From a virus, in the IMG/VR virus record IMGVR_UViG_3300031372_000011, positions 1 to 46,237 of that record: 46,237 nucleotides of DNA; one strand, written 5' to 3'. Made by a program: the position numbers and the translations under genes. This document shows positions 40,354 through 44,591 of the stretch, piece after piece. Numbering within the stretch: position 1 is the first letter of the stretch; every line of letters starts with the position of its first letter. The notes beneath the pieces are model-generated. The model was not told the DNA's origin. It worked only from the letters and a program-made list of their open reading frames with translations, and ran no database searches.

Positions 40354-41073
40354 ATGACGAATGTCATGAGTCCGGCTAATCTTCTACTTATGGTAGAAAA
40401 CGAATCAAAGTATCAAGACTTCGCAGATCGTCTAAACTCCCTAATGAGAGAAGAGGGGGTGGACGTGAATGCACTTAAAGATATCAGCGGGGTCTCATAT
40501 GAGATGGCCCGTCGCTATACGTTAGGCACAGCAAAGCCCAGGGATGAAAAGCTGGAGAAAATTGCGAAGCACTTCGGGGTAACAATGCCGTTCCTTGACT
40601 ATGGTGTCGGGGAGGCACTGCCTGTGGGTCATGATGCGGAAAAGCTCGAGCAGCTGGAAGTGTATGCCAGCGCAGGCCGCAGTGGTTATATAAACCGTGA
40701 TTTCCCTGAAGTAATCAGATCTATAGAAATTCCGAAAGAGAGGATCTACGAACTTTTTGGCAGAAAAAACCTCGACGGGATCAGGATTATGAACGTTGAT
40801 GGCGACAGCATGATGCCAACGTTAAACCCAAGGGATCTACTGTTTATCGATTCCAAGGTCGACCATTTCAATGGCGATGGCGTGTACGTTTTCTGCTTTG
40901 AAGATGCTACCTTCGTCAAGCGCCTTCAGCGTGTAAAAGGCCGACGCCTGGCGGTTATTTCCGATAACGATCGCTACCCACCGTTTACCATTGAAGAAAA
41001 TGAGATGTTCGAACTCTACATTTTTGGAAAACTCATCAAACAATTACCCATGAAATTTGTAGATTTCGCCTGA
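40354..41073 (+). CDS. cI: CI-type repressor (HTH plus S24 LexA-like autopeptidase domain)
   Basis: The protein has an N-terminal HTH and a C-terminal DGDSMMPTL (catalytic Ser) and FVKRLQR (catalytic Lys). Confidence 0.9.
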   Translation: MTNVMSPANLLLMVENESKYQDFADRLNSLMREEGVDVNALKDISGVSYEMARRYTLGTAKPRDEKLEKIAKHFGVTMPFLDYGVGEALPVGHDAEKLEQLEVYASAGRSGYINRDFPEVIRSIEIPKERIYELFGRKNLDGIRIMNVDGDSMMPTLNPRDLLFIDSKVDHFNGDGVYVFCFEDATFVKRLQRVKGRRLAVISDNDRYPPFTIEENEMFELYIFGKLIKQLPMKFVDFA

Positions 41074-41186: not shown

Positions 41187-41215
41187 TTGACGAATTCTAC
41201 ATTAGGTAGCATATT
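41187..41215 (+). promoter_or_regulatory. PL-like early promoter: -35 TTGACG, 17-nt spacer containing the operator CTAC-ATTAG-GTAG, -10 CATATT
   Basis: Read directly from the sequence, upstream of the plus-strand early operon. Confidence 0.55.
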
Positions 41216-41261: not shown

Positions 41262-41588
41262 ATGGCACTTGACCACGGCATCCTGAACCTACCCCTGAAC
41301 AAGCGCGGCCTGGGCAACATCGATGCAGAGATCGACCGGTTCAACAAGCAACAGCGCGAAGCGAAAGCCGAGGCCATGTGGGTGGCGAAAGACAACTACA
41401 AGACCAACAAGGCAGCAGCACTGGAAGCCCTTAAGCAGATCGATAGCACCCTGCTCAAGGCTCAGGCCGACAAGCGCAACATGAAGCCTCGGGAGTTGCT
41501 AAAGCTGGTCAAAGAAATGTGTAACGACAAGCCGAAGGTGGCCCTGAAGGTCATTCAGGATTTGTTTATCGCCAAAGCTGACGAGTAG
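41262..41588 (+). CDS. Hypothetical early protein (108 aa, Lys/Ala-rich helical)
   Basis: The ATG at 41262 is preceded by GAGGT. The track start at 41181 lies inside the promoter. Confidence 0.55.
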   Translation: MALDHGILNLPLNKRGLGNIDAEIDRFNKQQREAKAEAMWVAKDNYKTNKAAALEALKQIDSTLLKAQADKRNMKPRELLKLVKEMCNDKPKVALKVIQDLFIAKADE

Positions 41589-41595
41589 GAACGCG

Positions 41596-41862
41596 ATGAT
41601 GAAAGCTTACCAGTGCACAACAGACCTTTTTGCAGACGTCGATCTGGGCATCAAAAATGCTGTCCTGATGTGCGTTGAAGGCCCAGCAGCAGCAACCAAA
41701 AAGCTGTGTGGCCAACTGGCTAAATCCTTCGTCATCGCCGGGTATGAAGAAGATGGCGCAAAGGCTGGTGATCTGGTGGTGTTCTTCGTCGTTAAAAAAT
41801 CCGGGGTGTCTGCGTTCGTGGACGCGGCAACCCAGAAAGGAGGCGCTCGTGTTGAAGCATAA
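41596..41862 (+). CDS. Hypothetical protein (88 aa)
   Basis: An ORF in the early operon. Confidence 0.5.
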   Translation: MMKAYQCTTDLFADVDLGIKNAVLMCVEGPAAATKKLCGQLAKSFVIAGYEEDGAKAGDLVVFFVVKKSGVSAFVDAATQKGGARVEA

Positions 41863-42034
41863 AATGTGGACCTTCGAAATGAAGGGTGATCAGTTCTTCT
41901 TCACCGAGTTTGTTGACGGTCGCGAAGTAGCGACGCATGGCCCGGTGGATAAGGCAGCGGCCTCAGTATTGGCAGTCAGCATCATCCAAGGCTTTCAACC
42001 CCCTGCTCTGTTTGTAGAGGTTGAAAGTGAGTAA
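41849..42034 (+). CDS. Hypothetical protein (~61 aa)
   Basis: The GTG at 41849 is preceded by AGGAGG. An alternative ATG lies at 41864. The longer track ORF from 41675 overlaps the previous gene. Confidence 0.4.
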   Translation: MLKHKMWTFEMKGDQFFFTEFVDGREVATHGPVDKAAASVLAVSIIQGFQPPALFVEVESE

Positions 42035-42722
42035 GGGCGGCTGCCGGGCGACGGTGATCAGCATGCTGATCGGGCTTGTGTTCTTCGCCACCCTAGCTGT
42101 GGCTGTAGTGATCGATACCGCCGGGTAACCGGCCCATAACGGCCTGCTCATTCGCCCTTTTAATTAATTTTGGAAGCGGTGGGGGTAGCACTCATGAGTG
42201 AGCAGACCGTTGTGGTGAAGCGTTGGAGAGACGTTTGTATGCGGATTCAAGCGGGAGGCCGTTCGCAGTCGGAAGACTCGACCCCCGTTCGGCAATAGGA
42301 CGTAGGTACCAGCCACTACGGTGAGCCCAGCACCACAAATCTCCTTGCCGGGGAGTTCAACCGGCATGACAGCTCGGAAGAGACGAGCACACAACGATAA
42401 GAGCTCTGCACCGGATATGTGGCAAGCACCTGTGTAACTCCCGCTGGCGGCGTGGTAGTGAGGTCGCAGAGCCGACGTTACGGGCAACGCGGCGCAAGGT
42501 GGTCAAAGGCAGTGCTCTTTTCGTTGTGGCATCCGGTGATAGGCGGGCTACCTCTCCGCCCGGGGGTTCAACTCCTCCCACCACACACCTTATCCCCTAC
42601 CTTGGGATAAACCGGGCCCAGGCCGCCGGATAAACGTAACCGGCACCCAACTGAAACGGTTTTTAGGGGACGCGGTCTGTTTTACAGCGTGACGAAAGAA
42701 CCGGAGATAAAGCCGTTTCAGT

Positions 42723-42891
42723 TGTGGTGAATGCACAGGCTGATGTGCAAAGAGTAAGGGTGACGGGGTTCCTAGGCCCGGTGAACCGAGCGATTTGGTA
42801 AGGCCGATCTGGTGAAAGCGCCCTCAAAGTGGGTAGAGGCAGGTTCGATTCCTGCTACCAATGCCGGAGATCAGCGCCGGTCACCACAACC
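42723..42891 (+). ncRNA. tRNA-like element 2 (expanded, ~169 nt)
   Basis: The 5' part reads TGTGGTG-AA-[TGCAC AGGCTGAT GTGCA]. An inner minihelix follows: ATTTGGTA...[CCTC AAAGTGGGTA GAGG]-[GCAGG TTCGATT CCTGC]-TACCAAT. Then comes the hairpin GCCGG-N9-CCGGT, and the element closes with CACCACA-A-CC. Confidence 0.4.
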
Positions 42892-43064
42892 TAAATCTGA
42901 ATGTTGCTTCCTCGCTTTGCTGATAGCAGCGCATTCGCCGGATAGAGTAACCGGCACCCAACAGGAAAGAGCATTGGGACCGTGAGCGTGAAACGCTAAG
43001 GGCCACCCACACCAGGGAAAAGAGCAACGATAACCCGTTGCAGTGGTCCCAGTGCTCTCTCCGT

Positions 43065-43193
43065 TGCGGTGTAGTTCAGCGGTAGAACGGGCTATGGAGT
43101 GCTGGCCAGCGTGGGGATCAAAGAGGTTTGCAAACCTCCTGGTACCCGGTCCAAAAAGTGCAGTCGTCGGTTCGAATCCGACCACCTCAACCA
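43065..43193 (+). ncRNA. tRNA-like element 3 (129 nt) with canonical D arm, T arm and encoded CCA but a 77-nt central region
   Basis: The acceptor is TGCGGTG/CACCTCA (6 of 7 pairs). The 5' side reads TA-GTTC-AGCGGTA-GAAC. The 3' side reads GTCGG-TTCGAAT-CCGAC-CACCTCA-A-CCA. The central imperfect hairpin at 43113-43147 has the loop TTTGCAAA. Confidence 0.5.
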
Positions 43194-43470
43194 ACTAAAT
43201 GCTGTGTGTAGCTTTGGCGGCCTCGCCTAACTTCTACTTAATAGAGGTGACGACAATGTTCATGGGCCTGGCCGCCCTTTTTACACATCAGGTGGCGTAC
43301 TGTCCGGACCCTTAAACCTGGATAGTCTAAGAAAAACCGGAACGGTGCGCCACCTGGTGTGTGGAGAAATATGGCAGGCGATGAGTGGTATCCCTGCCAA
43401 TTAATATCAACCTATTTTCTGCGAAATATTGCCGAGTCTTGGCAGGGAGTTGTTTTGCCGAAAATCAGTG

Positions 43471-44400
43471 ATGGAGAATATCGTGAGCCATTTAACTTTC
43501 AAAAATATCCTTATTTATCGCCTGTCTCGGGATGTTGATTTATCGCCTGAAACTATTGAAACCCACCTGGCACCGTTCGCCCTTACACCATGTAGCAGCC
43601 AGGATATGGCGAAAGCTGGCTGGATTTCCCCCATGGGAAAGCGCGGAACGTCGCTATTTCATGCCGTTAACGGCCAGGTAATTCTTTGCGCTCGCAAAGA
43701 AGAAAAAATTCTTCCTGCTTCGGTAATTAAAGAAGAAGTGCAGAAGCAGATCGAAAAAATCGAAGGCGAACAGCATCGCAAACTGAAAAAGACGGAGCGG
43801 GACCAACTGAAAGATGAGGCTTTGCAGAGCCTGCTACCTCGCGCGTTTAGCCGCTTTACTAGTGTATTCATGTGGATCGATACCGTTAACGGCCTGATTG
43901 TGGTTGATTCGCCAAGCTCTAAACGTGCCGAAGATGTCTTGGCCTTGCTACGTAAGAGCCTTGGCTCGTTGCCGGTCACCCCTTTAACGATGGAGAGCCC
44001 TATAGAGCTGACTTTAACCGAGTGGGTTAGATCTGGAAAGGCGCCAGCCGGTTTCTTGCTGCAGGATGAGGCTCAACTCAAAGCCATTCTGGAAGAAGGC
44101 GGGACCATTAGCTGCAAAAAACAAGACCTGTGCGGCGATGAGGTGGCAACAAACATTGAGGCCGGAAAGCTTGTTACCACGCTGGCCCTTGAGTGGAAGG
44201 AACGGATCAGCTTTTCCATTACTGACACTGGAAGCCTCAAGAAGCTGAAGTTTTGCGATCAGTTGCTCGAGCAGAATGATGATATTGACCGTGAAGATTT
44301 TGCCATGCGCTTCGATGCTGATGTTGTTTTGATGACCGGGGAGCTATCTGCACTTATAGCCAACCTGACCGAAGTTCTTGGCGGGGAGGTGACTTCCTGA
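43471..44400 (+). CDS. rdgC: Recombination-associated protein RdgC homolog
   Basis: The protein is collinear with E. coli RdgC as I remember it, through segments such as FKNxxxYRLSR, [84 protein letters not shown] and [13 protein letters not shown]. The start is either ATG 43471 or GTG 43483 (GGAGA lies upstream of the GTG). Confidence 0.88.
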
Positions 44401-44591
44401 TGTTCGGTTTATTCCTCCTAGTCTGCTACACCTACCAGCCTTGCGATTATGTGCCCCAGGGTTGGGTGTACCCGGACCGATCAAACTGCCTGGCGGATAT
44501 CTACCAGCAGCAGTCGCCACCCCAGTATGAATGCCTGCCGGTTGACGGTGTAGTTCCAGCCGCAGTGCAGGATCAGGGAGAAATGGAATGA
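44400..44591 (+). CDS. Hypothetical small Cys-containing protein (63 aa) with a hydrophobic N-terminus
   Basis: The ORF has a TGATG overlap with rdgC. Confidence 0.45.
   Translation: MFGLFLLVCYTYQPCDYVPQGWVYPDRSNCLADIYQQQSPPQYECLPVDGVVPAAVQDQGEME

Follow-up and report, generated by a model that had tools for sequence, protein, structure and literature searches.

A tRNA-shaped RNA unit at the end of a cassette array in the early-left operon of a lambda-like phage

Is a sequence that has the acceptor stem, D arm, T arm and CCA end of a tRNA, with a 77-nt stretch between its D and T arms, still a tRNA? This question is raised by a 129-nt element, here called unit C, in a viral sequence of 46,237 nt (IMG/VR record IMGVR_UViG_3300031372_000011, positions 1 to 46,237), the whole of which is referred to as the window. 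A sequence-only reading had described unit C as either an expanded tRNA, possibly with an 8-nt anticodon loop, or a tRNA mimic in which another module stands in for the anticodon domain. Direct reading and exact segment search located the acceptor stem, both arms, discriminator A73, the CCA and the 77-nt gap just where that reading had placed them, as well as its imperfect hairpin at 43113-43147. The parts of unit C are:

43065-43193, + strand: unit C, a 129-nt tRNA-shaped RNA, with a near-identical copy in the related locus L008
43065-43071 with 43183-43189: acceptor stem, UGCGGUG with CACCUCA, 6 of 7 positions paired, C3·U70 mismatch
43072-43073: UA dinucleotide
43074-43088: D arm, GUUC-AGCGGUA-GAAC
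43090-43107: hairpin in the anticodon position, directly after G26, GGCUA-UGGAGUGC-UGGCC, 5 bp with an 8-nt loop
43113-43147: long imperfect hairpin of ~14 bp in the variable-arm position
43148-43165: linker
43166-43182: T arm, GUCGG-UUCGAAU-CCGAC
43190: A73
43191-43193: encoded CCA

The interval between the D and T arms spans 43089-43165, as compared to ~23 nt in a canonical tRNA, and the closing helix can be extended to 9 bp (43063-71/43183-91). Since the hairpin at 43090-43107 holds the anticodon position, the long hairpin occupies that of the variable arm. The 8-nt loop described for the long hairpin is present, but its tip is a perfect 16-nt palindrome, GAGGTTTGCAAACCTC (43123-43138), so that the loop can shrink to a UGCA tetraloop. 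We also observed a context that the sequence-only reading had missed: unit C is part of a four-unit array, this array is a member of a family that is widespread in phages and prophages, and a DicF-like small RNA (sRNA) is linked to it.

On balance, we consider it probable, with ample room for doubt, that unit C is a tRNA-derived, tRNA-shaped and non-decoding module, the last of four cassettes, in which the D and T arms are separated by 77 nt of interchangeable "cargo". As part of the same guarded judgment, selection would keep the tRNA outline, namely an elbow, an A73-CC(A) tail and a 7-bp acceptor stem that stacks on a T stem of 5 bp. The architecture of the units, their covariation and the modular exchange between relatives are observed directly.

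Units of this family have one of two scaffold frames. The T-type frame has true D and T arms and includes the classes T1 (unit C and its copy in L008), T2, T3 and T4. All four classes are 128-131 nt long, except for one 142-nt T3 variant (L365), and their interiors cannot be aligned. In 14 distinct scaffolds, 92.1% of cells were paired, and changes on both sides were found in 4 of the 5 T-stem pairs and 2 of the 4 D-stem pairs. The inner seven acceptor pairs were kept, and the outer pairs, G-2:C74 and U-1:A73, formed in about half of the units. Pairs of the G·U type recurred often, with 8 of 14 sequences having U·G at one of the acceptor positions; as these would be mismatches on the opposite strand, they fit an RNA that is read from the plus strand. 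Comparative covariation had been suggested as a check on unit C, and its outcome was that compensatory changes keep the acceptor, D and T stems in four unit classes. The proposal of a mimic with a replaced anticodon domain agrees well with these 14 units, which keep the stems around interiors that do not align, and it extends to a larger class with the same topology, in which a loop-loop helix replaces the contact between D loop and T loop.

This larger class has the K-type frame, composed of GUUGUGGUG, AA, a first hairpin (UGCGCA GGCUGA UGCGCA), an insert of 32-161 nt, a last hairpin (GCCGG AGAUCAGCA CCGGC) and CACCACAAC. Its topology is tRNA-like in that 2 nt separate the closing helix from the first hairpin and the last hairpin is contiguous with the closing 3' strand. 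The two hairpin loops are complementary, GCUGA with UCAGC. In an alignment of 29 distinct scaffolds, including Pseudomonas-type phage and cyanophage copies, 94.3% of cells were paired and 16 of 25 pairs had changed on both sides, pairs of the loop-loop helix among them. This helix was 93.8% paired and had two compensated positions (GGUCGA/UUCGAC in L227 and GCGA/UCGC in Cy-LDV1). None of 500 shuffles reached the observed values, and sliding the 3' partners by 1-3 columns lowered pairing to 27-54%. The elbow takes either of two forms, true D and T arms or two hairpins with pairing loops, and the covariation supports both.

Could unit C instead be what remains of a decayed tRNA gene, or a piece of tRNA stranded by integration or recombination, in which an insertion occurred by chance and which has no function? 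The C·U mismatch in the acceptor stem and an insert without a canonical anticodon arm would be expected of such a remnant, and phages often carry tRNA fragments at att sites. The exact unit was found in two contigs only, and its folding energy was no better than that of shuffled sequence (z = 0.66 for the whole of unit C and 0.18 for the insert), a calculation that appears uninformative and supports the structure neither way. Against decay, the acceptor, D and T stems are compensated in four classes of the same length, unit C stands in register within a repeated architecture, and the family is abundant. Along the early-left operon, the integrase gene is ~7 kb distant, provided that the window represents a circular genome, which argues that the site of unit C is not att. 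We therefore regard decay as very improbable.

Even less credible is a working but unusual tRNA, be it a four-base (UGCA) frameshift suppressor or an intron-bearing tRNA, and a decoding role for unit C is not supported. Several hallmarks of a tRNA are certainly present: the acceptor stem, discriminator and CCA, a D arm with G18/G19, a T loop of the UUCRANY type and a score above the gathering threshold. With relaxed filters, the Rfam tRNA covariance model (RF00005) matched unit C end to end over 43065-43190 with 38.8 bits (gathering score 29; E = 5.6e-06 in a 3-kb scan), a likeness beyond chance, with 72 nt being skipped as a local insert; a gathering scan of the window with default filters found nothing, unit C included. 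ARAGORN reported a "tRNA-???" with a 4-base anticodon, UGCA, at 43095-43193. This call, from a program that the sequence-only reading had suggested, takes another stretch as the acceptor 5' strand and is without a D arm, and the UGCA hairpin lies in the variable-arm position. UGGAGUG (43095-43101), in the loop of the anticodon-position hairpin, is a complement, in 6 of 7 positions, of CACCUCA (43183-43189), the 3' strand of the acceptor; this is the alternative acceptor used by ARAGORN, and it may be due to chance or represent an alternative fold.

The anticodon arm is what unit C does not have. In place of a 5-bp stem with a 7-nt loop, U33 and a purine at 37, the hairpin in the true anticodon position has an 8-nt loop with G at 33, and the UUUGCAAA hairpin that had been considered for an 8-nt anticodon loop lies outside this position, so that the expanded-tRNA proposal is not supported for unit C. 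As had been noted before, removing a simple insert restores no anticodon arm. The variable region of unit C is 58 nt (43108-43165), as compared to 4-5 nt in class I and up to ~21 nt in class II tRNAs. Related units point the same way. Those of class T2 (L211, L231, L228, L343) can be aligned with tRNA-Ile(GAU) of E. coli in the D arm and the anticodon stem, and their anticodon loops are cut to 4-6 nt (UGAA, UUAUGU, UUGUGU), followed by a ~60-nt insert in the variable region. ARAGORN found no tRNA in the units of the T2, T3 and T4 loci. The family acceptor UGUGGUG/CGCCACA, which starts with U1:A72, matches real tRNA-Asn genes of soil metagenomes, and the frame is therefore probably tRNA-derived.

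Known RNA classes other than tRNA were tested as well. A relaxed Rfam scan of 41500-44500 (E <= 10) returned tRNA matches and weak, chance-level matches only. A group I intron was rejected, as the insert is 72-77 nt, as compared to ~200 nt or more, and no intron family matched at E <= 10. For transfer-messenger RNA (tmRNA), ARAGORN reported none, the permuted model scored 16.1 bits against a threshold of 47, and the 3:70 pair is C·U, unlike G3·U70. A bacterial Y RNA (YrlA) domain had no Rfam match, and unit C ends in an acceptor stem rather than an anticodon-side stem, although no systematic search for a Ro60 gene was made. DNA-level recombination sites, of the integron attC type (GTTRRRY cores) or of other kinds, were rejected in view of one-strand, G·U-rich compensatory changes and a window without an integron integrase.

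In the window, unit C is the last of four units (42209-42339, 42523-42587, 42721-42890 and 43063-43193) that are closed by a nearly identical helix, GUUGYGGUG with CACCNCAAC or CACCNCAA(C). The spacers between units contain a conserved hairpin, "hp", and a long-range helix, P0, that abuts the next unit. Together with their flanks, they make up an untranslated array of ~1.1 kb (about 42145-43285) that belongs to the early-left operon of a temperate, lambda-like phage. Its features, and those that frame it, are:

41187-41215, + strand: PL-like promoter, TTGACG-17-CATATT, found by consensus scan, downstream of a predicted cI terminator at 41107-28
42145-42204, + strand: conserved 5' flank hairpin, UGCUCAUUC with GAGUGAGCA, common to relatives with other units or one minimal unit
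42209-42339, + strand: unit 0, the first unit, with an 8-bp closing helix of GUUGUGGUG (42209-17) and CACCACAAA (42331-39); identical in L008
42347-42522, + strand: spacer between unit 0 and unit A, with an hp-like hairpin at 42347-65; interior different in L008
42396-409 with 42508-22: P0a helix in this spacer, GAUAAGAGCUCUGC with GGCAGUGCUCUUUUC
42523-42587, + strand: unit A, small and tRNA-like, without a D arm, with a 5-bp closing helix and a hairpin at 42542-60; identical in L008
42562-78: T arm of unit A, GGGGGUUCAACUCCUCC
42625-42723, + strand: hp motif GCCGGAUAAACGUAACCGGC (42625-44) and P0b helix, AACUGAAACGG (42649-59) with CCGUUUCAGUU (42713-23)
42721-42890, + strand: unit B, a kissing-loop scaffold with closing helix 42721-29/42882-90
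42732-49 and 42863-81: P2 hairpin and last hairpin of unit B, the loop of the last hairpin pairing with the P2 loop
42762-87: H-type pseudoknot of unit B
42794-42863: inner tRNA-like element of unit B, Rfam tRNA score 29.6 bits
42937-42955, + strand: hp motif GCCGGAUAGAGUAACCGGC, then ACCCAAC
42964-43062, + strand: P0c domain, a 17/18-bp helix of GGAAAGAGCAUUGGGACC (42964-81) and GGUCCCAGUGCUCUCUCC (43045-62), a predicted RNase III site
43201-43282, + strand: DicF-like sRNA and intrinsic terminator, GCUGUGUGUAGCUUUGGCGGCC ... GGCCGCCCUUUUU, starting 8 nt after the CCA of unit C, with 7 nt in between

Open reading frames (ORFs) at 42034-43429 were short, and none of those tested matched a PHROG family. 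Elsewhere in the window, PHROG matches included a CI repressor (40354-41073, + strand), a cII-like protein (- strand), a Q-like antiterminator, terminase, major head and tail proteins and an integrase. This lambda-like gene set, with the cI terminator and the PL-like promoter, places the array in the early-left operon, upstream of an rdgC-like gene, and the PL-like promoter is likely to start the array transcript. The P0c helix abuts the 5' strand of the unit C closing helix, and unit A gave a weak tRNA-Sec match in the relaxed Rfam scan. The hp tails, CACCCAAC (42644-42651 and 42955-42963), resemble the closing-helix 3' strand and could pair with GUUGYGGUG (42721-29 and 43063-71), which would extend P0 and compete with unit closure. 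Just 5' of the array, at 42021-42128, there is a hydrophobic 35-aa ORF (MKVSKGGCRATVISMLIGLVFFATLAVAVVIDTAG); a different small hydrophobic ORF stands there in L079.

To compare close relatives, we gathered loci via the RdgC-like protein and aligned them by BLAST. In L078/L008 (97% RdgC identity), units 0, A and C are the same, and unit B and the spacer interior are different. L079 (91% identity) has other modules, and in L080 (81% identity), the same flanks on the 5' and 3' sides enclose just one unit of 60 nt, made up of the closing helix plus an 11-bp hairpin. The array is thus a cassette locus whose modules are exchanged between relatives. Near and distant BLAST searches of the array against phages and E. 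coli genomes returned short, module-level matches only, with none to unit C. Two pattern scans of IMG/VR for copies of unit C found L008 only, plus one false match that spanned neighboring tRNA genes. A scan of genome contigs with a poorly chosen pattern for the gap between D arm and T loop gave no enterobacterial match; its matches came from unrelated taxa, were not inspected and are taken to be D and T arms of adjacent tRNA genes. A first metagenome scan for further copies of unit C found none, and a second, loose one returned mostly chance 17-mers, a few true T2 and T3 units and real tRNA-Asn genes.

This variability also bears on whether the whole ~1 kb might be one large ornate RNA, similar to GOLLD or ROOL, with unit C as a structural domain. 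The structure is dense and continuous, with helices that abut one another (P0 on the closing helix, for example), and real tRNAs are interleaved with units in related loci. GOLLD and ROOL occur in tRNA arrays of bacteria and prophages, and tRNAs are embedded in GOLLD (PMC12990946). However, neither model matched 41500-44500 even at E <= 10, nor 17 related loci at the gathering score, and the number and order of units vary among close relatives down to the single 60-nt unit of L080. A single ornate RNA therefore appears unlikely.

More widely, the motif CAGTGCTCTNNNCGYTGYGGTG, which joins the P0 3' strand to the closing-helix 5' strand, was found in at least 120 IMG/VR loci, and the inserts of the loci listed vary widely inside a constant scaffold. 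A helix of the form ..AAGAGCAYUG.. with ..CAGUGCUCU.. and an hp motif precede units in at least 120 loci. Unit C fits this pattern in its P0 helix (42964-81/43045-62), its hp motif (42937-55), its closing helix of the family form, GUUGYGGUG with CRCCNCAAC, and a 3' strand contiguous with the last hairpin. The sequence CAGUGCUCUUU before each unit resembles the rrn boxA, and a boxA/Nus function was considered; it was rejected because the P0 helix covaries in L148 and L128 while the boxA sequence is lost there.

The hp motif, GCCGGAUA(A/G)A(C)GUAACCGGC or CCGGAUA(A/G)A(N)GUAACCGGCAC, was found in 42 IMG/VR loci from highly diverse phages. It often stands 10-35 nt 5' of ORF starts, some without a visible Shine-Dalgarno sequence, and is usually preceded by a small GNRA-capped hairpin. 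It looks like an independent cis-acting or processing module.

The T4 unit type was present in 891 of 5426 complete E. coli genomes (16%) and in 145 phage records, with no RNA annotation; in phage HK75, it has pR'/tR' on one side and the holin gene on the other. Several loci contain real tRNA genes in among their units, and some P22-like phages have tRNA genes at the same late-leader position (PMC8022706). Units of the T4 type are labelled "tRNA-Ser", "polyubiquitin-A" and "hypothetical protein" in PQ186186, ON470589 and PV340546, which are probably annotation artefacts. In L004, L121 and L129, as in related contigs of Klebsiella type, a gene that we take from its translation to encode a DNA methyltransferase overlaps at its 3' end with tRNA-Thr or the 3' part of a unit. 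The overlap is with tRNA-Thr in L120 and elsewhere with only the last hairpin and 3' strand of the unit. These overlaps suggest recombination at these sequences. Rfam 15 has no model for any part of the family, and the searchable open-access literature yielded no description of it, also when searched for its motif sequences. A catalogue of 10,006 candidate viral structured RNAs (PMC10690425) may contain pieces of the family. The family is thus large and, as judged from Rfam 15 and this literature, unannotated.

The position of units next to genes suggests another function. The array, unit C included, might be a cis-acting mRNA leader rather than a source of free RNAs, with structures that govern how the rdgC-like gene and those after it are read through or translated and how stable their mRNA is, in the manner of the RNase III-processed leader of lambda N. 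Single units of the unit B type stand 20-45 nt before ORF starts in L005, L006 and L003. In L005, a boxA-like UGCUUCUUUAACAA and a hairpin (1741-1782), likely nutL, precede the unit, and the ORF after it (1992-2285) matches an N-like antiterminator (phrog_271, E = 2.8e-07). With a separate boxA-like sequence and hairpin upstream, the unit itself is not the nut site, and a put-like or nut-site identity was rejected. In lambda (L404), the N leader contains between nutL and N a structure closed by a similar GU-rich/CA-rich helix, CUUUGGGGUGUGUG with CACACACC(A)CCAAAG, and is processed by RNase III. A unit in E. coli K-12 ends 25 nt before the dicB start codon, and in the window a terminator and then early genes follow the array. 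In contrast, the last unit of the window precedes an sRNA-like terminator rather than an ORF, the same kinds of unit occur in late-operon leaders and beside tRNA genes, and close relatives in which the downstream genes are the same have between one and four units, which are quite different. Such variation before the same genes is hard to reconcile with a tuned leader. A leader function is therefore somewhat unlikely as the explanation of the array, though a cis role and a processing role are compatible.

The processing role draws on a comparison with the K-12 dicF locus. In the Qin prophage (NC_000913.3, L402), dicF comes after the helix GAAAGCGCAUGG with CCGUGCGCUUCC and then a unit that is closed by GUUGUGGC with GCUGCAAC and whose hairpin loops can pair (AUGG with CCAU). 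A further unit, GUGAUGUGGUGAAUGCGGCUGAGCGCA...CACUGCAUCAC, follows the dicF terminator and is the one that ends near dicB. The flanking units are:

L402 1775-1965: K-12 unit on one side of dicF, unannotated
L402 2052-2185: K-12 unit on the other side of dicF, unannotated

To our knowledge, the 137 nt 5' of DicF have been treated in published work as precursor sequence only. There are two forms of DicF, one of 190 nt, with a 5' end produced by RNase III, and one of 53 nt, with a 5' end produced by RNase E (Ragunathan et al., PMC10448788, confirming what Faubladier et al. had found before). A distance of 190 nt upstream from the 3' end of dicF leads to L402 ~1846, inside the P0 3' strand (1839-1850) and just before the closing helix, so the 190-nt species corresponds to "unit + DicF". 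The order in the window is the same as in K-12: P0c, unit C, DicF-like sRNA. Both sRNAs align in CUG(U)GUG..UUUGGCGG and in the GCCGCCCUUUUU terminator, and related loci of the family gave sub-threshold DicF matches of 29.1 and 27.1 bits.

From this homology, together with the shape of unit C, we infer a likely function as a processing and stability scaffold that carries an insert and is cut by RNase III, RNase P and RNase E. Transcription of the array would start at the PL-like promoter and end at a predicted terminator at 43270-82. By homology with the K-12 dicF locus, RNase III would cut the P0 helices before the units, in P0c at about 43050-43058. RNase P gauges the 12-bp stack of acceptor and T stem relative to the elbow, with a preference for U at -1 and for an RCC tail; the tRNA shape would draw it to cleave so that U43065 becomes the 5' end. 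To part tRNAs from one another, RNase E cuts A/U-rich sequence a few nt past the CCA, and it may cut in the A/U-rich AACUAAAU right after the CCA of unit C, one cut then also yielding the 5' end of the DicF-like sRNA. More speculatively, the freed 129-nt RNA would be stable through its likeness to tRNA and would show its insert to a partner. A hammerhead-like match at L200 384-430, CUGAAGAG...CGAAAC...GUC, is a type I candidate with 28.7 bits (gathering score 34), which by eye fits the conserved core. It lies in the loop of a P0 helix, just 5' of a unit, and also points to cutting of these transcripts. The real tRNA genes found among units in related loci fit with processing too.

Related units give some hints about the inserts. 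The insert of unit B, in which the pseudoknot GACGGGGUUCCUAGGCCCGGUGAACC precedes an inner tRNA-like domain, hardly varies among enteric phages, Pseudomonas phages and cyanophages, including Pseudomonas phage Marin, Cyanophage Cy-LDV1, L005 and L006. This breadth of conservation is unusual for a non-coding phage element. A preQ1-like aptamer was considered for the pseudoknot and was rejected, being without Rfam support. The pseudoknot and inner domain were located at:

window 42762-42863: unit B-type pseudoknot and inner domain
L001 1535-1640: the same
L003 1516-1618: the same
L005 1838-1945: the same
L006 3719-3830: the same

In L222, the insert of a kissing-loop unit on the minus strand (from position 1591) copies nt 243-282 of E. 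coli 16S rRNA, helix 11, with 85% identity over 40 nt, and matches the Rfam SSU models with E = 9.6e-07; L207 was likewise noted. These hints allow a decoy or aptamer role. One might then view the family as a natural "tRNA scaffold" display of temperate phages, in which a constant frame provides stability and processing while the inserts are decoys or aptamers that copy host RNAs, titrate RNA-binding proteins or RNA-targeting defence nucleases, and are shuffled in an arms race. The helix 11 copy, the inner tRNA-like domains and the conserved pseudoknot would be examples, and unit C would be one decoy. We put forward this display function, unit C's part in it included, as a tentative and rather unlikely idea.

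Several observations weigh against unit C as a processed, non-decoding scaffold. The encoded CCA is found mainly where a unit is the last before the 3' flank and is not family-wide, many other units having ACCC, ACCU or CACA in its place. Pairing of G-2/U-1 with C74/A73 could hinder or shift cleavage by RNase P, and the RNase P and RNase E cuts are deduced from shape and sequence alone. The DicF-like sRNA of the window scored 19.5 bits against the Rfam DicF model (RF00039), below the threshold of 48. Unit C itself is known from only two near-identical copies, the window and L008, the fold of its insert is predicted, and the folding energies given above lend it no help. Finally, a scaffold role leaves the number and the structuring of the inserts unexplained.

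If the scaffold interpretation is nevertheless correct, a common feature of lambdoid prophages has gone unannotated, with one unit type alone in 16% of complete E. coli genomes. The family would have a version in which Watson-Crick loop-loop pairing replaces the elbow of D loop and T loop. The 190-nt DicF precursor of K-12 and the surroundings of dicF would join the family and provide a ready experimental system, as rnc, rne and rnpA strains are already available. The units would account for sporadic "tRNA-???", "tRNA-Ser" and "hypothetical protein" calls in phage records, nature would have reached the "tRNA scaffold" trick of recombinant RNA work, and what the inserts do could be relevant to conflict between phage and host.

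Among known systems, canonical tRNA is the obvious reference. Unit C shares with it a 7-bp acceptor stem started by U1:A72, U8-A9, a 4-bp D stem, a GG-containing D loop, UUCGAAU, A73 and CCA; it differs in the distance between D and T arms and in the canonical anticodon arm, which is present in tRNA, so that unit C has nothing to decode with. The closest types are tRNA-Asn and tRNA-Ile from the start of lambdoid late operons, the family acceptor UGUGGUG/CGCCACA being Asn-like and the T2 units Ile-like. The lambda N leader has a GU-rich/CA-rich closing helix, and the L005 unit occupies the equivalent place before its N-like gene; the lambda structure is without a tRNA-like scaffold, and the comparison is taken as a likeness only. 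Similar to the array, GOLLD and ROOL are large structured phage and prophage RNAs in tRNA arrays that sometimes embed tRNAs (PMC12990946), but they match it neither in sequence nor in structure, and the array is modular with a variable number of units.

The K-12 190-nt DicF precursor has the same long helix, closed unit and sRNA with a UUUGGCGG...GCCGCCCUUUUU terminator, in the same lambdoid early-left operon. In contrast to the window, where processing by RNase III is deduced by homology and that by RNase E from shape and sequence, both are experimentally established in K-12, and the K-12 unit has the hairpin and loop-loop design instead of the true tRNA type. Other tRNA-like folds within longer transcripts serve as processing handles: in MALAT1 mascRNA, the TMER tRNA-miRNA transcripts of murine gammaherpesvirus 68 (MHV68), and the C4 RNA of P1/P7 and CI RNA of P4, tRNA-processing enzymes set the ends and free neighboring small RNAs. 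Unlike the array, these are single elements or eukaryotic/viral pol III units, without shuffled interchangeable inserts; the Rfam C4 model had no match in 41500-44500 (E <= 10). The engineered tRNA scaffold for recombinant RNA, reportedly due to Ponchon and Dardel, has a structured RNA of choice in place of the anticodon arm and retains the arms of acceptor, D and T, which serve stability and processing in E. coli; PMC3753655 mentions the approach. The engineered scaffold is man-made, whereas the phage version is apparently natural and comes in two forms, one with D and T arms and one with a kissing-loop substitute.

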